Positions 10,101 through 54,494 are shown, counted from the stretch's first letter. The stretch is DNA of 55,040 nt from a virus (IMGVR_UViG_3300030116_000815:1-55040); one strand, 5' to 3'. Notes: generated from the sequence alone by a model not told the origin. Numbers and translations are program-made.

Positions 10101-11961
10101 AGAAAAAAGAGATGGAGAATATTTTAATGTAGGCAGATTTACTGATGATGAATGGTTTGAATTATATCAAACAGGTTTAGCATTAGAGCAAACAGTAATG
10201 GAAAGAATAGAAGGTCTAGCTGGTGAAGCATTAAATGGAAGAGTATTTAAAGGTTTTCAAAACGCATTCTTTAAATCTAATTTATTAACACAATGGACTA
10301 AAGCTGTACAACTTGCTTCATTTACTACAGGTAAAAGAATTGTTAGACAACATGCACAAGCACTAGCAACAAACAAGACAAGTTTAGGTGGCACACTATC
10401 AGCAGGTAGAAGACAACAATTTATAGATGAGCTAAGTGAGTTTGGTATAAGAGAAAAAGATGCTATAAGATGGTATAGAAATTCTGTAACTCCTGATGGC
10501 AAGATTAATGAGAATTTTGCAAAAGGATTAAATAACAGAGGAGAAATGAGTCTTAATGAAGAAGCAATATTTAATGCTAAGTTTCATAGACAAATGATAA
10601 AAGGTGCAAATAGATTTACAAAAGAAATTATTCTTAATCCTAGTGTAGCAGAAGCTAACAGACCATTGTGGTTTTCTAATCCTAGTGCACAATTTTTAAT
10701 GCAGTTTGCTGGTTACCCAACTGTATTTACAAATACTGTTTTAAAAAGATTTGCTAGAGAAATATCAAAAGATGGTAGTAGAAAAGAAATGTATAGAACT
10801 GGTAGAATACTACCAACAGTTATGTTAATGACTGCAATAGCTCACATAGGTAATGAGATTAGAAGTAATGGTAACGCAACTTTTGAATATGGAACTAATG
10901 AAAAGAAACCAGACCATAAAATTATTTTAGATGCAGTAAGAAGATGGGGTGGTTTAGGTCCTTTTGATTATGCTCAAAGGTTTGCCAACGAAAGAGAAAG
11001 AGGAACTGGATTTGTAGCAGAAACTTTAAAATCTATTTCCGGTCCTATACCTCAAGACATTATAGATGCTATTCTTTATAGAAAAGGTTTATCTGAATTA
11101 ACAGTAACTAATATGCCTTACTTCCAATTATATGATACTATTTTTGGAGAAGGTACTAAGAAAAAATTAAAACAATTAGCAAGAGGAAGTACAGGAGAAA
11201 GAAAGAAAAAAGTACCAGATGTTTTAGCTAGAATAGGATATGACAGAGGTGGTATAGTTATGAATGTTCCTAATGTTCCTGATGAACCAGATGAAAGGGT
11301 TGACAAATTTACTGGAGAAAGCTATAATAATACTTCAGAGAATGCACAAGATTTATCTGACAGAGAACTTAAAAGACAACAGTTTAAATTAGGTGGTGCT
11401 ACTTGGAAAGGAATGCGTCTAAGAGACCGATTAGGAGCTGTGCTTTATCCTTTATATAAAAGAGGTGCAGAGAGATTAGGTTATACTGATGAAATGCAAG
11501 GTCAAGCTTTTTCTGATTCTTTTGATTATATAAAAGAATATGATAAACAAGGTAAGTTAGAATTTTTTAAAGCTTCAACTGAAAGGCGAAATGACATAGA
11601 TGAAATAGTTAGACATGCTTTACTTGGATATAGATTAGGTGATTCATTACCAAAAAGAATTGCTGTACAAGCAAAAGATGCAACACAAGCTGGTATGTAT
11701 TATGGATATAATCCTAAAGCAGGTGTAGATAAGTTTGATTTTAAAACTCCTAAATCTGGTACAGGTTTTCAAAATGAAAGAGGTGACTTAATAAATAATA
11801 GAGTAGGATTTGCACTAAGAAAAAAATATGGTGATGATGAACGAGCTGCAATGGATGAATTAATGCGTATGATTGCAAGGAATGATGAGTCATTAAATTA
11901 TTGGCAAGGTAGTAATATTAACAAAAAACCTTTTAATCCACAAGGAAGGAGAGTAATGTGA
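7195..11961 (+). CDS. Large internal virion (ejectosome) protein
   Basis: 1588 aa; Gly/Ala-rich hydrophobic segments near the N-terminus; last large gene before the lysis cassette. Confidence 0.65.
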   Translation: MATSRPFYLAYEEAVRRRDAEEERKKREKELEEQRLLALKPPSVDPVEESLFEQFRESDRMVKKALDPSPQRIPTTRLTLTQLKNDNEFADTAERFMDTIGRNENIFEYLRDANFSLSAAAQRSFEMGDWDEQTMQDYNYLRTRFNNAEIGSFKERLGQIKDIGGDILFDPVNWLTLLFAAPTGGGALGARATVAAAQAKGTARLAQQGLKRYTKAKFEKDVGKESAKRFGLLGASEGLAWAGLHDYFMQDIDVNLGLQDEIDVNRLAVSSTLGATLGGAVGAGIGRLSVGPRYAKMLEKEYKFASEANVDATVPKYRQGSLFDEDEVPTTKPKEGEVKPTPKPKKEEEPTIRQQEEEEYRQQQQADSLFYNDWMDKDKIPNPIKWFSKTFVEKPTKVFYDRLQKLGPNASYTLMNNLRKLRQDVDRDALGKKGTGVKQIQLNRAYADDLDRSTFNKFTNESYGEYFASLIGLFNTGLEQAFGVLGLTGVFRTRIATTNNNQVRDLLQNKDLMLVRERAIDKEGNYYGFTGKETIMQRTMNEDGTYTFNKKINVGDEVDGIKLDAELHFGYKRLRGLYDEVYDLSIQEGLIDSSVSKLGYFPRMFNHSAVQKKREILQEKIIKYGHANPDNTKMKLTDYIDETGNPIEVAYFKGDKGLDWNTFTILREGGYDSFEDIAASVYYRSLTNKQKQSFNNRADVKQFVKDNELRKGQSYKFLIDKIDEKSNLTIDFSKLKNFKRNDTISAYEYARQVKAETIVTDMLEKRHIPNELKMLGKRYGENAGFLQSRRFVNIPDRELNEFLEDDVMTISNQYFNNAAQILARSRYFGKNISVQEDTIFKPIREELQEAGLSLEEAAKITDDFRKVVRKITGLDNSHLDSWWNKTAAGRNLGDFLKLSQQMAHLPLATLSSITEPLILLTRDFSSDTTKDIGRALLSETNNMFDRIGKTVSRARGKATPRQKLSRLGVEKRDGEYFNVGRFTDDEWFELYQTGLALEQTVMERIEGLAGEALNGRVFKGFQNAFFKSNLLTQWTKAVQLASFTTGKRIVRQHAQALATNKTSLGGTLSAGRRQQFIDELSEFGIREKDAIRWYRNSVTPDGKINENFAKGLNNRGEMSLNEEAIFNAKFHRQMIKGANRFTKEIILNPSVAEANRPLWFSNPSAQFLMQFAGYPTVFTNTVLKRFAREISKDGSRKEMYRTGRILPTVMLMTAIAHIGNEIRSNGNATFEYGTNEKKPDHKIILDAVRRWGGLGPFDYAQRFANERERGTGFVAETLKSISGPIPQDIIDAILYRKGLSELTVTNMPYFQLYDTIFGEGTKKKLKQLARGSTGERKKKVPDVLARIGYDRGGIVMNVPNVPDEPDERVDKFTGESYNNTSENAQDLSDRELKRQQFKLGGATWKGMRLRDRLGAVLYPLYKRGAERLGYTDEMQGQAFSDSFDYIKEYDKQGKLEFFKASTERRNDIDEIVRHALLGYRLGDSLPKRIAVQAKDATQAGMYYGYNPKAGVDKFDFKTPKSGTGFQNERGDLINNRVGFALRKKYGDDERAAMDELMRMIARNDESLNYWQGSNINKKPFNPQGRRVM

Positions 11962-12422
11962 ACATAGAATTATGTAAAGCAGAGATAACTAGACATGAAG
12001 GTAAAGTATTAGAAATATACGAAGATAGTCTAGGATATAAAACTCTTGGTATAGGACATTTATGTCAACCAGAAGACCCAGAATATAATTGGGAAGTTGG
12101 TACTCCTGTATCAGAAGAAGTTGTTGACATGTATTTTGAAGATGATTTTAACAAACACTTAGCAGAAACTATTCATGTGTTTGGTTCAGAGGAAGCATTT
12201 TATCATTTACCTTCTGACATACAAAGAGTATTGGTAAACATGTGTTTTAATTTAGGTGGTACTAGATTATCTAAATTTAAAAATATGTTGTTAGCATGTA
12301 GAGCACACAACTGGAAAGAAATGGCAGTACAAATGGAAGATAGTCGTTGGTATGGTCAAGTAGGTAGGCGTAGTAAAGAACTACAAGATATAGTATTACA
12401 ACAAAGTGATTCTGTATACTGA
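11958..12422 (+). CDS. Endolysin, T4-lysozyme-like (GH24)
   Basis: HEG-x6-D-x5-T catalytic pattern (RHEGKVLEIYEDSLGYKTLGIGH), NMCFNLG, SRWYGQVGRRS. Confidence 0.92.
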   Translation: MNIELCKAEITRHEGKVLEIYEDSLGYKTLGIGHLCQPEDPEYNWEVGTPVSEEVVDMYFEDDFNKHLAETIHVFGSEEAFYHLPSDIQRVLVNMCFNLGGTRLSKFKNMLLACRAHNWKEMAVQMEDSRWYGQVGRRSKELQDIVLQQSDSVY

Positions 12423-12555
12423 AAAACAATTAGAAGATGCTTACAATGCATACAGAAAAATACAAATAAAAGGCGATATGGCTTTTGTATCTTTAAAAGA
12501 TTTTAGAATTATGTTTGAACAAATATTAGAAGTATTATATAGGGATATGTTATGA
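12406..12555 (+). CDS. Small hypothetical protein (49 aa, MILYTEKQLEDAY...)
   Basis: GTG start; fills the gap between endolysin and holin and overlaps both; read manually. Confidence 0.55.
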   Translation: MILYTEKQLEDAYNAYRKIQIKGDMAFVSLKDFRIMFEQILEVLYRDML

Positions 12556-13028
12556 AAAAGTTATTAAAAAATATTGTAGGTGCAGTAGCTCCAACATTAG
12601 GAACTGCTCTTGGTGGTCCTATGGCTGGTATGGCTGGTAATATGATTGCAGAAGTTTTAGGCGTACCTAATAATCCTAAAGCTATAGAGAAAGGTATAGC
12701 AGAGGCTACTCCTGAACAGATGTTAGAACTTAAAAAAGCTGAACAAGCTTTTGAGGTTCAAATGAAAGAACTTGATGTTGATGTATTTAAACTAGAAACA
12801 GAAGACAAACAAGATGCAAGAAGCAAATTTAGTAAGGACTGGACTGCTCGTATCATGGGTATAGCTACAGTAGGTGGATTTTTAGGATATATATTCTTAG
12901 TAACATTACAACCACCAGAACAAAATAGTGAGGCATTAATTAATCTAGTATTAGGTTATCTTGGTGGACTTGCTAGTGCTGTAATTAGTTTTTATTTTGG
13001 TGCATCTAACACTACTAAAGATGATTGA
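12552..13028 (+). CDS. Putative holin (GTA 3TM holin-like)
   Basis: N-terminal APTLGTALGGP, D..DAR motif, two C-terminal TM helices ending SFYFGAS; next to endolysin. Confidence 0.7.
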   Translation: MKKLLKNIVGAVAPTLGTALGGPMAGMAGNMIAEVLGVPNNPKAIEKGIAEATPEQMLELKKAEQAFEVQMKELDVDVFKLETEDKQDARSKFSKDWTARIMGIATVGGFLGYIFLVTLQPPEQNSEALINLVLGYLGGLASAVISFYFGASNTTKDD

Positions 13029-13119
13029 TAGAAGTAATATACCAGAACATTTAAGACATTTAGAAGAGTGGAAATTAAAAGCATTATTTTTTATATTTAA
13101 ACCAAGATGGATGCAGTAG
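13021..13119 (+). CDS. Small hypothetical protein (32 aa)
   Basis: ATG overlaps holin end and stop overlaps next gene; read manually. Confidence 0.35.
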   Translation: MIDRSNIPEHLRHLEEWKLKALFFIFKPRWMQ

Positions 13120-13454
13120 AAGTAATACAACAAGTAGGATTTCCTATTGCAGCAGCCCTAGGTTTAGGCTGGTTTATATATAAACTTATTATGCGTATTG
13201 TTGATGGTATGGAAACTAAATTAGATACCATGGATGACAAAGTACAAACTGCATTGGACACAATGGAGGAAAGAGTATCTACTAAATTAGATAGTCAATA
13301 TGGTATTATTGTAAGTCTAATTGATAGAGTAAGGGCAATGGACAACCAAAGTATTAGACAAGATGTATTGTTAAAAACTTTACTAGGTGTTCCAAATTTA
13401 ATTGACATAGAAAAAATAGCAAAGGCAGATAGAGATGACCAAAGGAAAGATTGA
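13107..13454 (+). CDS. Membrane-anchored coiled-coil protein leading the curli-like operon
   Basis: N-terminal TM helix (GFPIAAALGLGWFIY) then heptad-rich region. Confidence 0.6.
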   Translation: MDAVEVIQQVGFPIAAALGLGWFIYKLIMRIVDGMETKLDTMDDKVQTALDTMEERVSTKLDSQYGIIVSLIDRVRAMDNQSIRQDVLLKTLLGVPNLIDIEKIAKADRDDQRKD

Positions 13455-13953
13455 TAACATAGAAAATGTACACCCAATGAGACAAATAACTATAGCTTCT
13501 ATAGTACAGATAACAATGTTTGGATTTATGTTGTTATCTTTTTTTACAATAGATAAATTATTTGCAGATGAAATAGTACATAAATTTAAAAATCCAAGCT
13601 TTAGTGGTATAGGTACATCTGCCCATTATCTTACAATAGAAAACCAAGAGCACATGCGTAAGATGACAATCAAAGAAGAACTTAAAGCTTTACAAGAACA
13701 AATAGAAAGAGACAAAGAAAATACAACACTTGCAAGATTTATAAGAAACTTAGAATCTAGAATATATGCACAATTATCCAGACAACTTGTAGAAAATTTG
13801 TTCGGTGAAAATCCAAGTACAAGTGGGATATTAGAATTAGAAGGTAATACTATTGAATATAGTATTGAAGATGGAATTATAACTTTAACAATTACGGATA
13901 GTGATGGGAATACGACAGTTATTCAGTTGCCTATTGGTGATTTTAGTTTCTAG
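13435..13953 (+). CDS. csgF: Curli assembly component CsgF-like
   Basis: Hydrophobic leader, then ADEIVHKFKNPSFSG (CsgF F.NP.FGG motif); C-terminal ITITDSDGNTTVIQLP; directly upstream of csgG. Confidence 0.75.
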   Translation: MTKGKIDNIENVHPMRQITIASIVQITMFGFMLLSFFTIDKLFADEIVHKFKNPSFSGIGTSAHYLTIENQEHMRKMTIKEELKALQEQIERDKENTTLARFIRNLESRIYAQLSRQLVENLFGENPSTSGILELEGNTIEYSIEDGIITLTITDSDGNTTVIQLPIGDFSF

Positions 13954-14758
13954 TTGTGCAGTTCTAAGTCACAACACAGACTTCGCATTAACAAGAGATA
14001 TAAAGTCTGCCAATATACTGGACTTACAATCAGAAGAATTATTAAATATACCGGCTGCTAAGAGACAGCCTATTATAGCAGTATACTCTAATAGTTTTCA
14101 AGACCTTACAGGTCAAAGAAAAAGTAATAGTAGTTTTGCTATGTTTAGTACTGCAGTTACACAAGCTCCAGAAGCTTTGCTTATACGAGCTTTAAAACAT
14201 GCTGCAGATGGTAAATTTTTTAGGGTTGTTGAAAGGGTAGGTTTAGATAACCTAACTAAAGAAAGACAACTTATCAGGTCAACCAGAGAAAATTTCGAGG
14301 AAGACAAACAGCTCAAACCTTTGTTATTTGCAGGACTGCTTATACAGGGTGGAGTTATTAGTTATGACACGAATATAGAATCTGGTGGTATTGGAGCTAG
14401 GTATCTAGGAGTAGGTAATAGCAAACAATACAGAGAAGATGTAGTAACTATATCGTTAAGATTAGTTTCTGTATCTACAGGTGAAGTATTATTAGAGACT
14501 ACAGTTTCTAAAAATATTTTATCAACAGGTGTTTCTCAAGATATATTTCGTTTTATTGAAATGGGCACAGAGCTTGTTGAAGTAGAGGGAGGTGTAGCAG
14601 AGAACGAAGCAGCTTCTATAGCTTTGCAAAAGGCAATAGAAACTGGAGTTTTAAATTTAATAGAAATAGGAATACAGAGAGGGTATTGGGAATATGAAAA
14701 CATTGAAATTAATGAGCCTAGTTGTGATGCTGACTGCATTGACAGCTTACGGGGATGA
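13901..14758 (+). CDS. csgG: Curli secretion channel lipoprotein CsgG
   Basis: Lipobox LVSSC; FQDLTGQRK, STAVTQ, F.VVERVGLDNL.KERQLIR, GGVISYD, QYREDVVTISLRLVSV.TGEVL. Confidence 0.92.
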   Translation: MMGIRQLFSCLLVILVSSCAVLSHNTDFALTRDIKSANILDLQSEELLNIPAAKRQPIIAVYSNSFQDLTGQRKSNSSFAMFSTAVTQAPEALLIRALKHAADGKFFRVVERVGLDNLTKERQLIRSTRENFEEDKQLKPLLFAGLLIQGGVISYDTNIESGGIGARYLGVGNSKQYREDVVTISLRLVSVSTGEVLLETTVSKNILSTGVSQDIFRFIEMGTELVEVEGGVAENEAASIALQKAIETGVLNLIEIGIQRGYWEYENIEINEPSCDADCIDSLRG

Positions 14759-15413
14759 TAATGAAATTTTTGTTGACCAATCTGGAGACAATGCCAACAT
14801 AGATTTAGAGCAACTTGGTAGTGGAAACATTATCGGTGGTTTAAATTCTACTGCTGGTAGTCTTACAAATCCATTAGATTTAGATGGAAGTGCTTTGACA
14901 CTTGACATCAATCAAATAGGTGACACTAATAAATTTCTTGGTGATATACTAGGAGATAATATTACAGGTTATTTTAATTTTGATGGCAACTCAAACGCTT
15001 TTACTATTCAGGTGGACCCAACAAATACTTATGGTGCTGACAGTTCTGACTTTGATGTACAAGTTAATGGAGATAGTAACACATTTACTTTAGATGTAGC
15101 TACTGATTCAATGGCTAGTAGTACTGATTTAGATTGGATTATCAATGGAAGTAGCAATACATTAGATTTTGATATAAATTATGATGGTGGTACTTCTTAT
15201 GTTGATATAGATGGAGACAGTAATTCTGTTACTTTTGATGGAAGTGGATATGCTGGTGGTTATTTTTATTTAGACCAAACAGGAGATTCACGAACTTTTA
15301 ACATACAGCAATTAAGTACTTTAAATAATGATTGGCTCAAGATACTTTCAACTGGCGATTCTGGTACTGTGTGTGTCATCCAAGATGATAATGGCACAGC
15401 AGTCGGATGCTAG
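14694..15413 (+). CDS. Secreted curlin-like beta-solenoid protein (CsgA/CsgB-like)
   Basis: Signal peptide, then imperfect N-x5-Q/x-x-G-x-x-N repeats (NEIFVDQSGDNANIDLEQLGSGN; DINQIGDTN; LDQTGDSR). Confidence 0.7.
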   Translation: MKTLKLMSLVVMLTALTAYGDDNEIFVDQSGDNANIDLEQLGSGNIIGGLNSTAGSLTNPLDLDGSALTLDINQIGDTNKFLGDILGDNITGYFNFDGNSNAFTIQVDPTNTYGADSSDFDVQVNGDSNTFTLDVATDSMASSTDLDWIINGSSNTLDFDINYDGGTSYVDIDGDSNSVTFDGSGYAGGYFYLDQTGDSRTFNIQQLSTLNNDWLKILSTGDSGTVCVIQDDNGTAVGC

Positions 15414-16434
15414 TATTGGAAGCGTAACCGAACTAAATGGCATAGGCAGGATTGTAAGGGATAAACCTTATGATGCTGCCTTATCATTTGACATTGAAAG
15501 TTATGACAATGTCGAAACTTCTAATGGTAGAATAGGAATAACATTTCTTAATGATACCAGAGTTAGACTAACAGAACATTCACAATTACTCATAGATGAA
15601 TTTATCTATGACCCTGACCCATCTAAATCTAAGATGGCTCTACAGTTTGCTAGTGGTACTGCAAGATTTATTACTGGTAAACTAAATAATATAAACAAAG
15701 AGAACATTGCTATCTCAACTCCGAGTGCAAATGTTTCTATTCGTGGTACAGATTTTACAATCACAGTCAATGAACTGGGAGAATCTCTTATTATATTATT
15801 ACCCAAATCAGATGGTACTCCAAGTGGAGAAATACTAGTAGCTACTGCTGCAGGTGAAGTATTGTTGAATCAACCATATCAAGCCACTACAGTATCTATG
15901 TTTGAAGTAGAACCAAGTAAGCCTGTGATATTAGATATTACTTTAGAACTCATAGATAATATGTTAATTGTAAATGAACCACAGGAAATAGAAAGAAATG
16001 AAGGAGAGATTGGAACTAGCGTTTCTAGTATTCTTGATGTTGACTTCCTTGAGTTTGATGATTTAGAAGTAGATTATTTAGCAGAGGATAATTTAGAATT
16101 TACAGAGTTAGATATAAATTATCTTGATGTAAATTTTCTTGAAGACCTATTAGATATAATAGAAGACATAAATGAATTAGACCAGACAGAAACTTTGCTA
16201 CAAGCTGAATTAGATTTAAAAGGTACATCGTTTGGATTTGACCAAGAAACTCAAATAAATACTTTTAGTACAGACAATGTATTAACATTTTTAAAATCTT
16301 TAGAAGATACAGTAAGATTAGATTTAGATAAGTCTAGTGCTTACACAGTAATATTAATACAGAATGGAAAGAGTACACAGATTATAGTAAATGGTGGTGG
16401 CTCTTCTACAATAACAATTAGACAAGGGAGTTAA
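15328..16434 (+). CDS. Exported FecR-domain protein
   Basis: Signal peptide; D.VET..G...ITF.NDT.V.L.EHS.L.ID and I.TPSA.VSIRGTDF motifs; acidic repeat region; beta-rich C-terminus. Confidence 0.8.
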   Translation: MIGSRYFQLAILVLCVSSKMIMAQQSDASIGSVTELNGIGRIVRDKPYDAALSFDIESYDNVETSNGRIGITFLNDTRVRLTEHSQLLIDEFIYDPDPSKSKMALQFASGTARFITGKLNNINKENIAISTPSANVSIRGTDFTITVNELGESLIILLPKSDGTPSGEILVATAAGEVLLNQPYQATTVSMFEVEPSKPVILDITLELIDNMLIVNEPQEIERNEGEIGTSVSSILDVDFLEFDDLEVDYLAEDNLEFTELDINYLDVNFLEDLLDIIEDINELDQTETLLQAELDLKGTSFGFDQETQINTFSTDNVLTFLKSLEDTVRLDLDKSSAYTVILIQNGKSTQIIVNGGGSSTITIRQGS

Positions 16435-16435
16435 T

Positions 16436-18187
16436 ATGAAGTGGGCTAGTTTATTATTAGGATTACTTACGCTTCCATTGTTATTTAACTTTGGACCTTT
16501 AGAGGTCATGAGATTAAAAACATTTGATGCGTTAGTCAAAACACCAGAACCATCTGGCTACTTTACTATATTAAATATTACAGAAGAGGATGTCCAAAAG
16601 AGAGGAGGTTATCCTTTTCCAAGAGCAGATTTAGCTGACATACATATAGACCTTTTGAATGAGGGTGCTTTGGGTGTTGGTTGGGTAATATTGTTTCCAC
16701 AGCCTGACAGACTTGGTGGTGATGAAAAGTTTGCAAATGCTTTACAATGGAGACATACTGTATTAGCAATGCCAGAGTTTGACAATGGTATTTATCCTGA
16801 AACTCATGGTACTGTTATACTAGGACCAGATGTAAATTTACCACAGGCAAAAGGATTTTTAGAAAACATACCTGAATTAAAAGAAGTATCAGTACAGGGT
16901 GCTGTTTCTGCTCCAGTAGATGTAGACAATCTTGTAAGAAGATTACCACTATTACAACAAACTCCGGATGGTTGGGTTGCTTCTTTCGGTATACAAGTTT
17001 TAAAGTCATTAGTAGAAGGAACCACATATCAAATAAAAACTAATGACAATGGTATTGAGATGATAAGAGTTAAAGGACTTGACCCAATACCAACAGATAG
17101 TCTTGGTCGTAAATGGATTAGTTGGGTTGATACACCACAGACTACATTAGAGGAGATGGATGTTGCAGGTAAGTTTGTATTTGTAGGCGTTACTGCAGCA
17201 GGGGTAATGCCCACTTTAGCCACCCCAAATGGGCTATTAGAGCCTCACAAGATACAGGCTGCCCTTGCAGAAAGTATTTTGATTGACTCTCCGTTCATAC
17301 CTGACTATAGATTATTTGTAGAACTTATTTTATTATGCATATCAGGATTATTAATAACCTTCGTGATAAATCGCTTTGGTATTACTATGGGTGTATCGTT
17401 GGCAGGTACGCTGATATTGTCGATGGGTGGGCTAGGTTATTATTTAATCTCTCGAGGCTTTTTAGTTGATGTCACATGGAGTATGACATCTATGACACTC
17501 TTGTCATTACAACAATTTTATTTAAGATTCAGACAACAATACAAACTAAGACAACAAATCAAGAAACAGTTTGAACATTATCTAGACCCAAGACAAGTAA
17601 AACAATTACAAGAAAATCCTGAACTGTTAAAGTTAGGTGGTGAAAGAAAATATTGCACCATGTTATTTACCGATGTCAGGGGATTTACAAACTTATCAGA
17701 ACAATTACAACCAGAAGAAGTAACAGAGTTAATGAACAAGACATTAACCATACAAGCCAATGCAGTTAAGAAGTATGGTGGTATGGTTGATAAATATATA
17801 GGTGATGCCATGATGGCTATCTTCAATGCACCAATGGACTTAGATATGCATGAAGACAGAGCAATACTTGCAGCTATAGAAATAAAAGAAAAGATGCAAG
17901 AAGCAAACTTAGGTATTGAAATTGGTATAGGAATCAATTCGGGTATCGTGATGCTTGGAAACTGTGGGAGTGAAGATAGGTTTGATTATACTGCTATAGG
18001 TTCCGATGTAAATCTTGCAGCTAGATGTGAGAGCAGTTGTAAAGCTGTAGGCAAAGATATAGTCATAGCAAAGAATACTGCTCAAGAAACAGACATACCT
18101 TTAATTAAACTAGACCCAATAGAAATGAAAGGTATTGCAGAGCCAGTAGAAATATATACTACAGTAGACTTGACAAATCCGACATAG
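16436..18187 (+). CDS. CHASE2-domain class III adenylate cyclase
   Basis: N-terminal TM, CHASE2-like sensor (YPFPRADLA, GGDEKFA, DVDNLVRRLPL), three TMs, cyclase motifs FTDVRGFT, DKYIGDAMM, YTAIGSDVNLAARCES. Confidence 0.92.
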   Translation: MKWASLLLGLLTLPLLFNFGPLEVMRLKTFDALVKTPEPSGYFTILNITEEDVQKRGGYPFPRADLADIHIDLLNEGALGVGWVILFPQPDRLGGDEKFANALQWRHTVLAMPEFDNGIYPETHGTVILGPDVNLPQAKGFLENIPELKEVSVQGAVSAPVDVDNLVRRLPLLQQTPDGWVASFGIQVLKSLVEGTTYQIKTNDNGIEMIRVKGLDPIPTDSLGRKWISWVDTPQTTLEEMDVAGKFVFVGVTAAGVMPTLATPNGLLEPHKIQAALAESILIDSPFIPDYRLFVELILLCISGLLITFVINRFGITMGVSLAGTLILSMGGLGYYLISRGFLVDVTWSMTSMTLLSLQQFYLRFRQQYKLRQQIKKQFEHYLDPRQVKQLQENPELLKLGGERKYCTMLFTDVRGFTNLSEQLQPEEVTELMNKTLTIQANAVKKYGGMVDKYIGDAMMAIFNAPMDLDMHEDRAILAAIEIKEKMQEANLGIEIGIGINSGIVMLGNCGSEDRFDYTAIGSDVNLAARCESSCKAVGKDIVIAKNTAQETDIPLIKLDPIEMKGIAEPVEIYTTVDLTNPT

Positions 18188-18197
18188 ACCCTATAAT
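18169..18197 (+). promoter_or_regulatory. hsp20 promoter (sigma70-like, also RpoH-like)
   Basis: TTGACA(18170)-N16-TATAAT(18192); also readable as CTTGAC-N15-CCTATA. Confidence 0.7.
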
Positions 18198-18253: not shown

Positions 18254-18673
18254 ATGACAAATCAAAAAGCATTCGGGCAGTTCAGCCCATTCTCGGTAGG
18301 GTTTGATGAAATATTTAATACACTAAGTATGACATCTAAATTAAACTCTAAACCAAACTATCCACCATACAACATTGTAAAGTCAGGCGAAGATTATCGT
18401 ATTGAAATATCAATGGCAGGTTTCAAGGTCGAAGATATTGATGTTGAAGTCAAGGATAATACATTAACTATATCTGCTGAACAGACAGATGAAAAGAAAG
18501 GAGTAGAATATATCCATAAAGGTATATCTGAAAGAGACTTTTATAAATCATTTGCTCTTGCAGAGTATGTTGAAGTAAAAGATGCAGTAGTTTTGGATGG
18601 TATTTTGGTGATTTCTTTGGAAAAAAACATTCCAGAAGAAGAAAAGCCTAAAAAAATAGCAATAAAAAGCTAA
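18254..18673 (+). CDS. hsp20: Small heat-shock protein Hsp20 (IbpA-like)
   Basis: GFD, NYPPYNI, AGF, YIHKGIS.R.F...F.LAE, DGIL.I.L, PEEEKPKKI.I. Confidence 0.95.
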   Translation: MTNQKAFGQFSPFSVGFDEIFNTLSMTSKLNSKPNYPPYNIVKSGEDYRIEISMAGFKVEDIDVEVKDNTLTISAEQTDEKKGVEYIHKGISERDFYKSFALAEYVEVKDAVVLDGILVISLEKNIPEEEKPKKIAIKS

Positions 18674-46827: not shown

Positions 46828-49800
46828 ATGGCAGGATATACAAGACAAAGTTCGTTTAGTGATGGAGACAGCATAACTGCTGCTTTGTTTAATGATGAAT
46901 TTAACCAATTAGTAAATGCATTTCATGCAAGTACTGGACATACCCATGATGGTACTACAGCAGCTAATGGTGCTCCTATATCAGTATTGTACAGTAATAC
47001 AGTAACAATAGGTAAGAATGAAAATACTGATATAGCTATTACATTTAATGGAGCAACAACTGATGGTGTATTAACATGGATGGAAGATGAAGACTACTTT
47101 AAGTTTTCTGATGACATATTAGTAGATAGTACAGAAAAACTACAGTTTAGAGATACAGCAATATATATTAACTCTAGTACTGATGGGCAACTAGATATAG
47201 TAGCTGATACAGAAATACAATTAGCTGCAACTACAATAGATATAAATGGTGCAGTAGATATTTCAGGAGCTTTAACATTAGCTGGTACTTCATTAGCAGA
47301 AACTATTTCTGATACTGTAGGAGCTATGGTAAGTTCTAATACAGAAACAGGAGTTACAGTTACTTATGATGATAGTGATAATACATTAGACTTTGTAATC
47401 GGAACATTAAACCAAGATACTACAGGAAACGCTGCAACTGCCACAGCATTAGAAACTGCTAGAACTATTCATGGTGTAAGTTTTGATGGTACTGCTAATA
47501 TTGATTTATCAGAAGTTATTCAAGATACTGTAGGAGCTATGCTATCTAGTAATACTGAATCAGGTGTTACAGTTACATATCAAGATGCAGATGGAACTAT
47601 AGACTTTACTGTAGCTTCACAAACTGATGAAAACTTTACAACTGCTGACCATGCTAAATTAGATGGCATAGAAGCAAATGCAACAGCCGACCAGACTGCA
47701 GCAGAAATTAGAACATTAGTAGATAGTGCTAGTGATTCAAATGTATTTACAGATGCAGACCACACAAAACTAGATGGTATAGAAGCTAATGCAACAGCCG
47801 ACCAAACAGATGAAGAAATACAAGATATAGTAGGTGGAATGCTTACTGGTAATACTGAAACAGGTATTACTGTTACATATCAAGATGCAGATGGAACTGT
47901 AGATTTTGTTGTAGCATCTCAAACAGATGAAAACTTTACAACAGCAGACCACGCTAAATTAGATGGTATAGAAGCTAATGCGACTGCAGACCAAACAGAT
48001 GCTGAAATTAAAACTGCATATGAAAACAATTCAAACACAAATGCATTTACAGATACTTTATTAAGTAAACTAAATGCAATAGAAGCTGGAGCTACTGCAG
48101 ACCAAACAGCAGAAGAAATACAAGACATAGTAGGAGCTATGGTATCTTCTAATACTGAATCAGGTATTACAGTTACATATGAAGATAGTGATGGTACTCT
48201 TGATTTTGCAGTTGGTACATTAAACCAAGACACAACAGGTAATGCAGCTACAGCTACAGCATTAGCAACTGCAAGAACAATACATGGTGTATCTTTTGAT
48301 GGTACAGCAAATATAGATTTAACAGAAGTAGTACAAGATACTGTTGGAGCTATGTTCTCAAGTAATACTGAAACAGGTATTACAGTAACATATGATGATT
48401 CTGATGGTACTATTGATTTAGTAGTAGGAACTCTTAATCAAGATACTACAGGTAATGCAGCAACTGCAACAGCTTTAGAAACTGCAAGAACAATTAATGG
48501 TGTAAGTTTTGATGGTACTGCAAATGTTACAACACTTACTGCAGGTACAGGAGTATCTGTATCAGGTACAGAAGTATCTATAGGACAATCAGTAGCAACA
48601 AATGCAGATGTAGATTTTGCTACAGTTACTACTACAGGTAATGCAATTATTGGAGGAGACCTAACTGTAAGTGGAAATACAACTACTCTTAATACTGCAA
48701 CTTTAGATGTTGAAGATAAAAACATAACAATTAACAAAGGTTCAGGAGATACATCAGGTTCAGCAGATGGTGCTGGTATTACTATACAAGATGCAGTAGA
48801 TGCTTCAACAGATGCAACAATGTCATGGAGTGCTGCAAATGATAACTTTGTATTTTCACATGAAATAGCTGCTCCAAGTTTAGATATATCAGGAAATGTA
48901 GATGTTGATGGAACATTAGAAACAGATGCTTTAACTATAAATGGTACAGCATCAGTTCCTTTTGAATCTGCAGACCATACTAAATTAGATGGTATTGAAG
49001 CAAATGCTACTGCAGACCAAACAGCAGCAGAGATTAGAACACTAGTAGAATCAGCAAGTGACTCTAATGTATTTACTGATGCAGACCATACTAAACTAAA
49101 TGCTATAGAAGCTAGTGCTGATGTTACAGATGCTGCAAATGTAGGAAGTTCATTAACAGCATTTCCTACAGGTACAGATGCTGCAAGTTCAGACTTAGTT
49201 CCATATTATGATGTAACTGCAGGAGCATGGGAAAAATCTACAGTAACTAATTTAGCTTTACAAGGACCTACAGGACCTACAGGACCGACTGGTTCTACAG
49301 GACCTACAGGACCTACTGGACCAACTGGACCTACAGGACCTACAGGTTCTAAAGGACAAAAAGGTGAAGTAGGTGGAACAGGACCTACAGGTTCAACTGG
49401 ACCTACTGGACCTACTGGACCAAGTGGTTCTGCTGGGCAGAAAGGACAAAAAGGTGAAGTAGGTGGAACAGGACCTACAGGACCTACAGGACCTAGTGGT
49501 GCTGGTTCAGATGGTAGTAAAGGACAAAAAGGTGAGCCGGGTAATACTGGAGGAACAGGACCTACAGGTTCGACAGGACCAACTGGTAGTACTGGGCAAA
49601 AAGGACAAAAGGGTGAGGTAGGTAATACTGGACCCACAGGTAGTACTGGACCTACTGGACCATCAGGCTCTAATGGTTCTAATGGTAGTAAAGGACAAAA
49701 AGGTGAACCGGGTTCAACAGGACCAGCAGGACCTACAGGTAGCACAGGACCTACTGGTGGTACAGGACCTACTGGTGGCACAGGACCTACTGGGCAGAAA

Positions 49801-50907
49801 GGACAAAAAGGTGAGGTCGGTAATACAGGTCCTACAGGACCATCAGGACCAGCAGGTTCAGATGGAGATGATGGTAGTGCTGGACCTACAGGACCAACTG
49901 GACCTACAGGTAGCACAGGACCTACAGGTCAAAAAGGACAAAAAGGTCAAACAGGCTCCACAGGTGGCACAGGACCTACAGGACCTACTGGACCTACAGG
50001 ACCTTCTGGTTCAAATGGCTCTAATGGTTCTAAAGGACAAAAAGGTGAACCGGGTTCTACAGGTGGAACAGGACCTACAGGACCTGCAGGACCAACAGGT
50101 AGTACAGGACCTACAGGACCTACTGGAACTGGTCAAAAAGGACAAAAGGGTGAAGTTGGTGGTACAGGACCTACAGGACCTACAGGTGGTACAGGACCTA
50201 CAGGTGGTACAGGACCTACAGGACCAGCAGGACCTACAGGACCAACAGGTACTGGTCAGAAAGGACAAAAAGGACAAAAAGGACAAACAGGTGCTACAGG
50301 TGGCACAGGTGGTACAGGACCTACAGGTGGTGCAGGACCAGCAGGACCTCCGGGACCAGCAGGACCTCCGGGTTCAGCAGGTTCAGATGGTTCAAATGGT
50401 GGACCGGGACCAGCAGGACCTCCGGGACCTCCGGGTTCAGATGGTGGTTTTACAACCAACTCAAATGCACAAGTAAATAGTTTAGGTGCAGGTACTGCAG
50501 GTAGTGGTACAGCAGGTGAGATTAGAGCAACTAATAACATTACTGCTTACTATTCTGATGCTAGACTAAAAGACTTTGAAGGTACTATACCTAATGCATT
50601 GGCTAGAGTAAATAAACTACATGGTTATTACTTTAGAGAAAATCCAACTGCAAAAGAATTAGGTTATGAAAATGATAAACTACAAGTAGGTGTAAGTGCA
50701 CAGGAAGTACAAGAAGTATTACCAGAAGTAGTTACAGAAGCACCTATTGATGATAAATATTTAACAGTATGGTATGATAAATTAGTACCATTATTGATTG
50801 AAGCTATAAAAGAATTATCACAAGATTCACATCCTCCAAAATGTTTAGAAGACATGGAAGGATATGATGAGATTATTGAAAGAATAGAAGCTTTGGAGGA
50901 TAAATAA
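46828..50907 (+). CDS. Tail fibre with modular repeats, collagen triple-helix region and C-terminal S74 intramolecular chaperone
   Basis: N-terminal GH.HDGT anchor; repeats; about 390 aa of G-X-Y; SDARLK...GVSAQEV..VLPEVV...[15 protein letters not shown]. Confidence 0.9.
47311..49125 (+). repeat. Intragenic modular repeats in tail fibre
   Basis: Recurring [48 protein letters not shown] and [17 protein letters not shown] blocks. Confidence 0.85.
49264..50451 (+). repeat. Collagen-like G-X-Y repeat region (ggacctaca-type 9-bp repeats)
   Basis: GPT runs punctuated by ten G(S/Q)KGQKG blocks. Confidence 0.95.
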
Positions 50908-51611: not shown

Positions 51612-51805
51612 TGGCAACTATATCATATACAATAAAAACAGATGTAATGGATGACACAGTTAAATGGGCATCTTTTACTCATGATGGTGTATACTACGAA
51701 ATAAGAGCAACATTAGATTCTAATGGTGATGTAGATGATACTAAAACACAAGAAGATTGTCAAGACTATATTGAGTTAAAACAAGATGAGGCAGAAACAG
51801 TATGA
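51611..51805 (+). CDS. Small acidic hypothetical protein
   Basis: TAATG and ATGA coupling. Confidence 0.6.
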   Translation: MATISYTIKTDVMDDTVKWASFTHDGVYYEIRATLDSNGDVDDTKTQEDCQDYIELKQDEAETV

Positions 51806-52611
51806 CAATACCTAAGTCAGGACCAGTAATAAGAACTTTTGATTATGCGTTAGATGAACCTAGAACTATGGCATATCATGATTGGATAGCTGCTAATGTT
51901 AATGGTAAAGTAGTTTGTGAATTAGGAGCAGGTTCTGGTATACTAACTTACTTGTGTGTAAAATACGGAGCTACAAAAGTATACTGTTATGAAAATAACA
52001 AACGAGTAATTAATTGGTTAAAAAGATTTTTTGCAAGTGAGACTAAAGTAGAAGTTGTAGAAGAAGATATTACAACAGCAACTTTTCCTACAGCAGATAT
52101 ATATTTACATGAAAATATTGGTTCAAATGTTTACATGGAAAATATATTAGGTATGTATACTAATTTAAAATCACAAGGTTTAGAAGATAAAACTTATCCT
52201 AATAAAATTAAAATACAATATGGAACTTATACTGGTGAATCACAACTTCACAGATATAACAAGTCTTCAACATATATAGCTGATACTTTTACTAATGCAA
52301 ATGTGTTATCTTTTTTTAATGCATGTCCAATGGTAGATAAAATATTACCTTGGACTTGGTATAATTTAACACACGACCAATCAGCTATAACTTTTAATGG
52401 TACACTATATGATGGAGATTTAAAAGATTTAACAAGGTATACTGATTCAGATGCAAATAGTCAGTACATATTTTGGGAAGTTAGTTTTGATGGTAGCTAT
52501 CCTATATCTAATTGGAAGTTTAGAAATCATTGGAATATAATAAAAGCTGCTGATGAATGTATGCCTATAATGGATAGTAGTGTAATGACATATACTGTTA
52601 AAGAAGTTTAA
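51802..52611 (+). CDS. PRMT-like SAM-dependent methyltransferase
   Basis: D.PRT.AY, VVCELGAGSGIL, GA.KVY.YE, double-E loop HENIGSNVYME, C-terminal NHW. Confidence 0.75.
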   Translation: MTIPKSGPVIRTFDYALDEPRTMAYHDWIAANVNGKVVCELGAGSGILTYLCVKYGATKVYCYENNKRVINWLKRFFASETKVEVVEEDITTATFPTADIYLHENIGSNVYMENILGMYTNLKSQGLEDKTYPNKIKIQYGTYTGESQLHRYNKSSTYIADTFTNANVLSFFNACPMVDKILPWTWYNLTHDQSAITFNGTLYDGDLKDLTRYTDSDANSQYIFWEVSFDGSYPISNWKFRNHWNIIKAADECMPIMDSSVMTYTVKEV

Positions 52612-52658: not shown

Positions 52659-54494
52659 ATGAAAAAAATAGTAATCAGTTTAAAAAGAAGACAAGATAGA
52701 AAGAAATTATTTAAAAATAATAATTTAAAAGATTATAAATATTTAGAAGCTATAGATTATAAAACTTTAGATTCTAAAGATATTATAATTGATGAAGAGT
52801 TTAGAGACCCTTTTAAAAATAGACAAGTTTTAAAAAGTGAGGTAGCTTGTTTTTTATCCCATAGAAAAGCATGGGAAGAGTGTCATAGATTATATGAACC
52901 TGTAATTATATTAGAAGATGATGCAGTTATAAATGACACATGGGATGAAGAATATTACGAAGAGCTTATAAAAAAGTATGAGTTTGTTTACTTACAAAGA
53001 AATGAAAACGAACCACTTTTTGTTACACCGATAGATGGAAGAATAGAAAAACCATCTTATCCGTACAATTTAACAGCTTATGTAATAGACCCCATAACAG
53101 CTATGAAGTTAATGCATAACTATAATAAAATAATACCAGTTGATGAATATATTCCTCGACTTATTAAAAGAAATAAATTAGATGCAGTAGCTTTAAAACA
53201 AGATGCTTGTAATCAGTTACCAAGAAATATAAGTGAGAGTGACATCGAAAATAACACAATAGCACGAAACTTTACTGTACATCCAATTACAGTAGGTTCA
53301 GACAGATTAAAGTGCGTTAAGTTAAATACAAGTGCTAGAAAGCATGGTATAGAAGTAAAGAACTTAGGTACTAATGTAGAATGGAAAGGAACAGATATGT
53401 CTGGTCCGGGTGGTGGAATGAAAGCCAACCTATTAAGAGATTATGTAAATACTCTACCAGACAAAGATGTAGTTTTATTTACAGATGCATATGATGTTTT
53501 TTATGCAGATGATTTAGAAACTATAACTGAAAGGTATTTAGATTTTAATACTAAAGCAGTTTTTTCAGCAGAGCTATATTGCTATCCTGATTCTAGTATA
53601 GCAGATGAGTTTCCAGAATCTCATACACCTTATAGGTATTTGAATAGTGGAACATTTATAGCTCAAGTAGGAGAACTAAAAAAAATGTTTGCTTCTTCTA
53701 CTGTAGCTGATGATGGTGATGACCAACTGTATTATCAGAAGTTATTACTAAGTAATGAGTTTGATATGACTTTAGATTATGAAGGTTATATTTTTCAAAC
53801 ACATGAAGATGCAACAGGTATAAGTAGTTCAGGACAACTTTATAATCCTAGAACAGATTGCTGTGCATGTATTTATCATGGTAATGGTGGAGATAACACC
53901 AAAGAAAAATTTAATGCTTTGTATGATGTGTTTCATCCTAAGGCTGATTATTATTTTAGTCCTAGTAAATCATATGATATTATAGAAAATGATATGCTAG
54001 TAGTTGACTTTATGACACAAGAACAATGTGAAAGATTAATAGAGTTAGCTGATAATCATGGAAACTGGGATAGTTTAAAATATGACAAGTTTCCAGCACA
54101 AGAAATAAGACTAAAAGAATTAGGATTGTGGGCTGAATTAGAAACTAAATGGAATGAGTTTATTGTTCCTATAGTAGAAAAGTATTGGCAACCTACACAA
54201 ATGTATGGACTAAGAGATGCTTTTGTAATGAAATATAATTTAGAAACACAAAAAGATTTACCTTTACATACTGATGCAAGTTTAGTAACAGGAAGTGTAA
54301 AGTTAAATGATGATTATGAAGGAGCTGATTTATTTTATCCTAGACAAAATATCAGCAACAAAGATATACCAGTAGGTAAAATGATTTTATTTCCGGGTAC
54401 AGTAACACATGGACATGAGTGCTTACCATTAACAAAAGGAACTAAATATAGTTTTACCATATGGACAAACAGATTTCCCGGAGATAGTATATAA
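52659..54494 (+). CDS. Fusion: GT25 glycosyltransferase + PLOD-type glycosyltransferase + 2OG-Fe(II) lysyl-hydroxylase-like domain
   Basis: GT25: VISLKRRQDR, EVACFLSH..AW, ILEDD, PVDEYI. PLOD-GT: GGGMK, LFTDAYD, FSAE..CYP, YLNSG.FI, DDQLYY, IFQ, HGNG. Hydroxylase: FVMKY...Q..L.LHTDAS, FPG.VTH.HE.LP...GTKY. Confidence 0.88.
   Translation: MKKIVISLKRRQDRKKLFKNNNLKDYKYLEAIDYKTLDSKDIIIDEEFRDPFKNRQVLKSEVACFLSHRKAWEECHRLYEPVIILEDDAVINDTWDEEYYEELIKKYEFVYLQRNENEPLFVTPIDGRIEKPSYPYNLTAYVIDPITAMKLMHNYNKIIPVDEYIPRLIKRNKLDAVALKQDACNQLPRNISESDIENNTIARNFTVHPITVGSDRLKCVKLNTSARKHGIEVKNLGTNVEWKGTDMSGPGGGMKANLLRDYVNTLPDKDVVLFTDAYDVFYADDLETITERYLDFNTKAVFSAELYCYPDSSIADEFPESHTPYRYLNSGTFIAQVGELKKMFASSTVADDGDDQLYYQKLLLSNEFDMTLDYEGYIFQTHEDATGISSSGQLYNPRTDCCACIYHGNGGDNTKEKFNALYDVFHPKADYYFSPSKSYDIIENDMLVVDFMTQEQCERLIELADNHGNWDSLKYDKFPAQEIRLKELGLWAELETKWNEFIVPIVEKYWQPTQMYGLRDAFVMKYNLETQKDLPLHTDASLVTGSVKLNDDYEGADLFYPRQNISNKDIPVGKMILFPGTVTHGHECLPLTKGTKYSFTIWTNRFPGDSI

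Follow-up and report, generated by a model that had tools for sequence, protein, structure and literature searches.

Comparison with the described viral curli module

The closest described system to the locus reported here is the conserved viral type VIII secretion system (T8SS) region that Wittmers et al. (2022) found in nine HTVC023P-type podovirus genomes and in pelagimyophages, in which the csg genes are followed by FecR and, in many cases, by a second curlin gene and an adenylate cyclase (PMC9599517). In that paper the region takes up 7.8 ± 1.6% of the genome, occurs at every one of the 65 GOV2.0 stations as well as in metatranscriptomes, and does not always contain FecR and the cyclase. 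Buchholz et al. (2022) treated CsgG and CsgF only, as a possible lysis-timing pore (PMC9004378), and both sources describe a host without curli genes. In this study we examined a six-gene block at positions 13107-18187 (+ strand) of the virus record IMGVR_UViG_3300030116_000815, the 55,040 bases of which (CheckV completeness 100%) are called the window below. Our analysis revealed that the block is not new but represents the viral curli (T8SS)-FecR-adenylate cyclase module already in the literature; a sequence-only reading of the window had regarded the chain beyond csgF and csgG as novel, a view superseded by the 2022 description of the full chain (PMC9599517).

The six open reading frames (ORFs) of the block are as follows.

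13107-13454, + strand: first cassette gene, 115 aa; phrog_18771 (6.9e-15); N-terminal hydrophobic helix at residues 10-32 and a charged tail
13435-13953, + strand: CsgF; PF10614 (7.6e-18) and phrog_35372 (3.9e-43); signal-peptide-like hydrophobic segment at residues 18-36, then FKNPSFSG
13901-14758, + strand: CsgG, outer-membrane lipoprotein channel subunit; PF03783 (1.7e-51); N-terminus MMGIRQLFSCLLVILVSSC ending in lipobox-like VSSC
14694-15413, + strand: curlin-like beta-solenoid, 239 aa; signal-peptide-like N-terminus; Curlin_rpt at E 0.004, 17.5 bits (cut-off 20.7)
15328-16434, + strand: secreted FecR-domain protein, 368 aa; PF04773 (4.1e-11) at residues 61-148, phrog_37870 (7.8e-78); signal-peptide-like N-terminus
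16436-18187, + strand: inner-membrane CHASE2 class III adenylate cyclase; PF05226 (2e-27, residues 13-305) and PF00211 (1.2e-19, residues 406-574)

Neighbouring ORFs overlap by 20, 53, 65 and 86 nt and the FecR/cyclase pair abuts, so that the overlapping or abutting run of about 9% of the genome noticed in the sequence-only reading is confirmed by the coordinates (5081 of 55040 bases, 9.2%). The gene identities given there were equally sound: the Pfam matches for CsgF, CsgG, FecR, CHASE2 and Guanylate_cyc exceed the curated cut-offs, and the curlin-like gene, whose Pfam match does not, has a solved curli subunit as its best structural match. PHROGs families exist for five of the six genes, none with an assigned function.

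As in the published module, csgF and csgG adjoin each other here, and a repeat-built curlin-like gene, FecR and the cyclase come after them. Annotated copies with this gene order are found in Pelagibacter phage HTVC008M (KC465899, 7562-13807) and in Methylophilales phage Melnitz (MZ577097, 50731-56876). The block resembles the module of Wittmers et al. in gene order, including the small preceding gene, in having no CsgC, CsgD or CsgE, and in taking up about 8-9% of a podophage genome. It differs in that no second curlin-repeat gene lies between FecR and the cyclase, and its proteins are only 28-45% identical to the myophage versions. The term CHASE2 has no occurrence in the available text of PMC9599517, and the transcriptome paper PMC12753301 contains no mention of curli, CsgG, cyclase or HTVC008M.

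What sets this copy apart is the carrier, which is neither an HTVC023P-type podovirus nor a pelagimyovirus, a difference concerning the phage and not the module. The record encodes a podophage structural set together with a T7-like replication set. Its nearest cultured phages are the Pelagibacter phages HTVC103P, HTVC104P and HTVC115P, with identities of 66-67% for TerL, 51-60% for the major capsid protein and about 50% for the DNA polymerase PolA. Compared with HTVC023P (MN698239), PolA shows 33% identity over 158 residues and TerL gave no match. Judged by these protein comparisons, the carrier is an HTVC103P/115P-like podophage and not of the HTVC023P type, and such phages are a third carrier lineage of the module, which here lacks the second curlin gene. 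Of 50,697 phage records searched with the cyclase and CsgG, matches came from HTVC008M and Melnitz, from two records of Acinetobacter phages and from a short Salmonella record; since no other phage record matched, the three cultured relatives are without the block at tblastn sensitivity.

Linkage of the genes across viral genomes

The sequence-only reading had proposed a synteny survey, and the genes do co-occur elsewhere, in HTVC008M, in Melnitz and in IMG/VR loci. At least 596 IMG/VR viral stretches encode a relative of the phage cyclase, and the best 80 of these were taken as cyclase-seeded loci; a second set was seeded from CsgG. All six genes were found in 44 of the 80 cyclase-seeded loci, colinear on one strand in 43 and with an inverted cyclase in one. 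Among the remaining loci, 35 are cut by the locus end in or beside the block and one stops just after an Hsp20 gene. In the CsgG-seeded set, every locus with at least 5.5 kb of downstream DNA carries both FecR and the cyclase (27/27; 20 on the same strand, 7 inverted), and a homologue of the first cassette gene together with CsgF is present in all 74 loci having upstream DNA.

Inversion of the cyclase, seen in 6/80 cyclase-seeded and 7/27 CsgG-seeded loci, places it in the orientation of the replication genes. In this variant the cyclase converges on FecR and runs with ribonucleotide reductase genes, in most loci with Hsp20 behind it. An Hsp20 gene follows the cyclase in L003, L010, L011 and L039 as well as in most of the inverted-type loci L004-L009.

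A profile search of genome contigs with the FecR alignment yielded 11 loci (L083-L093), all of them on contigs of metagenome-assembled genomes (MAGs), with 42-58% FecR identity. The cassette-bearing bins are titled Pelagibacter, Maricaulis, Parvibaculum, Neomarinimicrobiota, Saprospirales and Rhodobacterales, and one contig of 60.8 kb matches at both ends. These contigs are probably phage genomes that were binned into MAGs, and the search thus yielded no bacterial neighbourhoods.

The CHASE2 adenylate cyclase

The cyclase consists of a transmembrane helix, the CHASE2 domain, a transmembrane bundle and the catalytic domain, with hydrophobic helices at residues 4-24 and 293-323. Given the helix at 4-24 and the hydrophobic bundle from 293, the CHASE2 domain should face the periplasm, and the phage enzyme thus has the full layout of CHASE2 receptor class III adenylate cyclases (periplasmic CHASE2 between helices, then the catalytic domain). 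In an alignment of 15 sequences, D413, K453, D457, N526 and R530 are invariant, and position 519, after a nearly invariant Y518, is T or S. The roles assigned to such class III residues are metal binding for the Asp pair and adenine recognition for Lys and Thr/Asp, together with the Asn and Arg. The best solved relatives are adenylate cyclases, including Pseudomonas aeruginosa CyaB (3r5g, 8.2e-30), with common DKxxGD and DYTxIG motifs; the phage K/T pair is as in CyaB and unlike the Glu/Gly pair of the guanylate cyclase Cya2. On the strength of these residues the phage cyclase should be an active adenylate cyclase. A complex prediction with CHASE2 (residues 25-292) and FecR (residues 25-215), both supplied as alignments, was run without controls and returned a score of 0.00, a result that is neutral either way.

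The FecR-domain protein

In an alignment of 17 sequences the FecR protein falls into three parts: after the FecR domain comes an acidic, strongly conserved segment, ELDxNYLDVNFLEDLL, and then a beta-rich C-terminus, which ends in the curlin-like NGGGSSTITIRQG. As a guess, the C-terminus might be a fused curlin repeat; its BLASTP match to the second curlin-repeat protein of Melnitz (E 0.19) is not significant. Its similarity to the bacterial FecR proteins linked to cyclases is limited to the N-terminal 210 residues or so (HMM positions within 2-210, from profile hidden Markov models, HMMs), and an Atlas search with residues 150-368 returned virus clusters only, at 0.88-0.90. The AlphaFold2 model of the whole protein, built on the 17-row alignment, has a mean pLDDT of 36, and phmmer found nothing meaningful among PDB sequences.

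The protein shares PF04773 with the anti-sigma FecR of the FecIRA system, and in Escherichia coli FecR this domain contacts an outer-membrane protein from the periplasm, according to PMC5498481. It differs from FecIRA in having neither the cytoplasmic anti-sigma part nor a membrane anchor within the chain, and Pfam recognized in the window neither a partner of the FecI or FecA kind nor any family of sigma factors or TonB-dependent receptors. An identity as a FecIRA-type iron regulator is therefore unsupported, since only the signal-peptide-like segment and PF04773 are present, with no partners in the window. Furthermore, as the FecR/CHASE2 pair habitually lies beside outer-membrane export devices in bacteria (see below), the phage FecR is probably not an iron regulator.

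The curli export genes

The first cassette gene has no Pfam family at E<=0.01 and corresponds to the gene that Wittmers et al. named HK and called a histidine kinase (PMC9599517). Homologues precede CsgF in HTVC008M and Melnitz (30-32% identity), and its charged tail is probably coiled. In the Atlas its neighbours are clusters of viral proteins alone, none assigned to a family; a holin and a Mu-like releasin family are among the nearest clusters that bear a name, with scores of 0.88 that serve as leads only. The protein shows no sign of being a sensor histidine kinase: it has 115 aa, neither HisKA nor HATPase_c was found by the Pfam search, and no kinase family occurs among the Atlas neighbours.

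The phage CsgG can be aligned to the E. coli CsgG structures over residues 44-267 (3.1e-46). Phage CsgF belongs to the Pfam family, most likely starts at Met15 (13477), and carries at its mature N-terminus an FxNPxFxG-like motif, as in the E. coli CsgG-CsgF channel (PDB 4uv3, 6l7a); a phmmer search with CsgF against PDB sequences gave nothing meaningful. In the constriction loop the two channels differ, PYPASNF of E. coli CsgG standing against SNSSFAMF in the phage. In E. coli CsgG the constriction is formed by Y51, N55 and F56. In contrast to E. coli curli, the phage has no CsgE, CsgC, CsgD or canonical CsgA/CsgB, and the Pfam families of CsgE, CsgC and CsgD are absent from the 63 window ORFs scanned.

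The curlin-like protein contains a repeated G-x-S-N-x-F motif and two C-terminal cysteines, C227 and C239, that are invariant in 20 sequences. Its AlphaFold2 model (pLDDT 82) is all-beta, and the best structural match with VIA-align was Pontibacter CsgA (8c50_A; Z 18.1, 202 aligned residues, 19% identity, root-mean-square deviation 9.0), with other beta-helices close behind at Z 15.6-17.3. Foldseek returned nothing from PDB at E<=0.001.

The two halves of the block in bacteria

Of 401 alphaproteobacterial genomes sampled, 219 contain relatives of the phage cyclase; the best of these relatives are 34-38% identical and have about 750 aa. The neighbourhoods of 20 such cyclase loci were scanned, 64 neighbouring ORFs by Pfam and all ORFs by HMMs built from the phage proteins. 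A FecR-domain gene (Pfam) lies within about 4 kb of the cyclase in 13 of the 20. Type I secretion genes (ABC/HlyD/OEP) occur in 5/20, FecR is fused to RTX repeats in 5/20, and a run of Slam barrel, FecR and cyclase on one strand was seen in three (L103, L105 and L106, with a FecR protein of about 930 aa). In L101 and L104 (genomes G322 and G448) the cyclase gene belongs to a type I secretion operon, between HlyD and OEP in the order ABC, HlyD, cyclase, OEP, and next comes a protein of about 2000 aa with an N-terminal FecR domain, RTX and Calx-beta repeats; similar FecR-RTX proteins are found in L119, L109 and L116. Neither CsgG nor CsgF was found near these cyclases (0/20 loci). Conversely, for 20 CsgG loci of Alphaproteobacteria, of which seven also have CsgF, neither FecR nor cyclase was found within 9 kb (0/20) by the phage-derived HMMs that had detected all 13 FecR cases.

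The alphaproteobacterial loci (L101, L103-L106, L119) resemble the phage block in combining an outer-membrane exporter, an exported protein with N-terminal FecR and a CHASE2 cyclase, often in the order exporter, FecR, cyclase on one strand. They differ in the exporter, which is of type I or Slam and not type VIII as in the phage, and in the FecR proteins, which have 900-2100 aa with RTX, Calx-beta or VWA parts, compared with 368 aa in the phage. To our knowledge, and without a dedicated literature search, these exporter-FecR-CHASE2 cyclase loci have not been described. In Sinorhizobium meliloti the gene of the FecR-domain protein SMc02177 is presumably located beside cyaD1, to judge from the locus tags.

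Related arrangements have been reported. Operons of a FecR-domain gene and a CHASE2 histidine kinase exist in Burkholderiales (PMC5192318), and SMc02177 belongs to the CHASE2-cyclase/Clr pathway of S. meliloti according to PMC5498481. The cyclases CyaD1, CyaD2 and CyaK of this pathway share with the phage enzyme the receptor type, CHASE2 with a class III cyclase domain, and a periplasmic FecR-domain protein as a pathway member (PMC5498481). They respond to a plant protein via the outer-membrane barrel NsrA, so that an outside signal relayed by an outer-membrane protein raises cyclic AMP (cAMP), as described in PMC13001267; the differences are that the outer-membrane partner there is not CsgG and that the output goes to the Crp-type Clr. 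The sequence-only reading had cast FecR and CHASE2 as an envelope-sensing pair. The pairing itself gains indirect support from the FecR genes beside 13 of the 20 closest alphaproteobacterial CHASE2 cyclases examined and from the S. meliloti precedent (PMC13001267). Judging from these neighbourhoods, phages seem to have joined a set of curli export genes to a sensor pair of FecR and CHASE2.

cAMP output, host and expression

No cNMP-binding domain was found in the window, and Pfam recognized no Crp-type protein, GAF domain, other cyclic-nucleotide receptor or phosphodiesterase in its 63 ORFs. The probable host family (SAR11) was sampled by 101 genomes, being the family of the MAG titled Candidatus Pelagibacter; cNMP_binding occurs in only four of them, a count to be read with the reservation that absence in incomplete genomes proves nothing. 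As this domain is rare in the host family and missing from the phage, the usual cAMP-Crp route is not evident. A class III cyclase domain was found in 3/101 of these genomes, two of the cases being cassette-bearing MAG contigs and one a fragment with seven in-frame TGA codons. A 1.2-Mb genome of the same sample contains a 683-aa ORF (G014:C1:324111-325130) with a strong CHASE2 match (2.9e-56) and no class III cyclase match, and hence at least one streamlined host relative has a CHASE2 receptor with another output.

DNA nearly identical to the window was found at half or more of the sampled words in 15 metagenome runs, and all or part of it in 20 runs from 14 studies. In addition, four metatranscriptome runs from three studies contain short contigs that differ at no more than one position (0-1 differences) from CsgG, the curlin-like gene, FecR, the cyclase and Hsp20, in agreement with the detection reported in PMC9599517. 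This support is weak because RNA libraries can hold DNA. In the layout of the RNA runs some parts are without a contig, and a joint from 15615 to 16042 (side 21, one contig) was below the trust limits and was left unused.

Flanking genes and other features of the window

The block sits at the end of the structural and lysis genes on the + strand, between the following features.

11958-12422, + strand: phage lysozyme, just upstream of the cassette; PF00959 (2.4e-07), phrog_7 endolysin (5.6e-17)
12552-13028, + strand: 158-aa two-helix protein; phrog_1544 (6.8e-27); hydrophobic 19-mers at residues 101-119 and 129-147 (C-terminal)
18170-18197, + strand: sigma-70 consensus promoter-like site, TTGACA-16 nt-TATAAT (12/12 matches), spanning the cyclase stop, 57 nt upstream of the Hsp20 start
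18254-18673, + strand: Hsp20 small heat-shock protein; PF00011 (4.9e-20), phrog_432 (6.4e-42)

The phrog_1544 protein may be related to lysis. In 23 of the 80 cyclase-seeded loci its gene precedes the cassette, and in 21 it immediately follows the cyclase, a pattern that would be expected if the cassette could enter on either flank of this gene. The sigma-70 site is a consensus match alone, with no evidence of function, and consensus scans revealed no strong promoter or + strand terminator pattern within 13.0-18.1 kb.

Elsewhere in the window, a 611-aa protein (52659-54494, + strand) unites two glycosyltransferase parts, one of family 25 and one a PLOD-type domain (4.5e-47), with a 2OG-Fe(II) oxygenase (phrog_61), and resembles collagen lysyl hydroxylase/glycosyltransferases. 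A few genes before it lies a 1359-aa tail fibre with collagen-like repeats (46828-50907, + strand) in a G+C-rich region (0.41-0.46 at 48-51 kb), and the 611-aa protein may modify this fibre. The methyltransferase at 51802-52611 (+ strand) has no Pfam matches beyond RrnaAD (4e-07) and, weakly, Methyltransf_25.

Possible roles of the module

We give about an even chance to the reading that the block is the published module, formed from two bacterial modules joined by phages, and that its cyclase turns the state of export or of the surface into cAMP. The export half, of alphaproteobacterial type, consists of the CsgG lipoprotein channel, the CsgF cap and one Sec-exported curlin-like beta-solenoid, and the envelope-sensor half of the Sec-exported FecR-domain protein and the inner-membrane CHASE2 class III adenylate cyclase. 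The infected cell would install the pore and the solenoid in or on its outer membrane. The conserved N-terminal FecR domain would remain periplasmic and serve the CHASE2 domain as a ligand or co-receptor, while the C-terminal half of the same protein, which is specific to the phages, would engage the pore or fibre; cAMP made by the cyclase would then report how export or the cell surface stands. What was observed are the identities of the genes, their export signals, the invariance of the catalytic residues, the strict linkage and the bacterial neighbourhoods; every protein contact, signal, timing and cAMP target in this scheme we infer.

Several points weigh against such a relay. Nothing in the data physically links the csg half to the FecR/cyclase half, and bacteria keep the two apart (0/20 and 0/20), which leaves no cellular model for a CsgG-FecR-CHASE2 relay. 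The 20 cyclase loci were picked by hand from the best-scoring places in long contigs, and are thus a non-random sample of one class, the Alphaproteobacteria. The inversion of the cyclase in some viral loci means that co-transcription with the csg and FecR genes is not required. The curlin assignment is a combination of a sub-threshold Pfam match and a structure match nearly tied with other beta-helices. With no receptor in the window and cNMP_binding in so few host-family genomes (4/101), the pathway output is without a known target. A trans-envelope sensor is a fair and plausible hypothesis, and the bacterial context makes it, on gene neighbourhoods, somewhat likelier than the published interpretation of an iron regulator plus transcriptional cAMP.

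That published interpretation (Wittmers et al., 2022; Zaragoza-Solas, 2020), which we consider rather unlikely, sees a complete curli system that forms amyloid fibres on infected SAR11 cells, aggregating them ("sibling capture") or blocking superinfection, with FecR (iron) and the cyclase (cAMP) regulating curli expression as cAMP and CsgD do in enterobacteria. CsgG and CsgF are indeed clear, the third protein is secreted, built of repeats and best matched by a solved CsgA, and the presence of the module at all 65 GOV2.0 stations and in metatranscriptomes (PMC9599517) fits a function of this kind. The regulatory side of the proposal is harder to reconcile with our results: the FecR protein has PF04773 only, with no anti-sigma part, and neither a sigma factor nor a TonB-dependent transducer is present in the window; with no CsgD or Crp-type protein in the phage and cNMP-binding in 4/101 host-family genomes, a path from cAMP to transcription has no visible receptor; and its periplasmic CHASE2 domain makes the cyclase a receptor, a feature on which PMC9599517 says nothing. 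Moreover, Melnitz gave no clumping according to Buchholz et al. (PMC9004378). Buchholz et al. (2022) proposed instead that the CsgG or CsgGF pore is re-purposed as a gated outer-membrane hole that times or completes lysis, in which case the rest of the block would tune it. The position of the block directly after the lysozyme gene and a two-helix membrane protein agrees with this, as do the relatives in which the two-helix gene stands just before the block (23/80) or just after the cyclase (21/80), and the first cassette gene, a small single-helix membrane protein with the holin and releasin Atlas leads (0.88) mentioned above. We nevertheless regard a lysis pore as very unlikely, since an outer-membrane pore alone cannot depolarise the inner membrane, the blocks of HTVC008M and Melnitz adjoin DNA-metabolism and baseplate genes and not lysis genes, and a pore does not explain why a secreted solenoid, FecR and an active cyclase are retained in 27/27 loci.

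It is also conceivable, if distinctly unlikely in our view, that the block carries two independent cargoes, with the csg genes providing a fibre or uptake channel and FecR/CHASE2 serving host takeover or interference with nucleotide signalling or defence. The separation of both sets in bacteria, the inversion of the cyclase with Hsp20 into the opposite transcription unit without loss, and the viral curli regions that are without FecR and cyclase (PMC9599517) are all in line with independence. On the other hand, the genes stay adjacent across phage families even though identity of the cassette proteins has fallen to 28-45%, and even the inverted cyclase still adjoins FecR, which is more than expected for unrelated cargo in freely shuffling genomes. 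Beyond the preferred reading of a sensor joined to curli export, a more general bacterial second-messenger relay, coupled to secretion or to the surface, may be imagined, and we offer it as a long shot: FecR would be the periplasm-retained N-terminal module of exported surface proteins, and CHASE2 would read its engagement with the outer-membrane exporter, as in the type I/FecR-RTX, Slam/900-aa FecR and rhizobial NsrA cases. Phages would have rebuilt this relay on a curli pore, and in a SAR11 cell without a Crp-type receptor the cAMP would either leave the cell or find a novel type of target, encoded by phage or host.

Few accessory gene sets are as common in ocean phages as this module, and it gives the most abundant marine bacterium functions that are otherwise missing there. 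The host family is mostly without the classical cAMP receptor. For bacteria, the FecR and CHASE2 genes emerge as a sensor pair that habitually lies beside outer-membrane exporters, with variable exported C-terminal parts.

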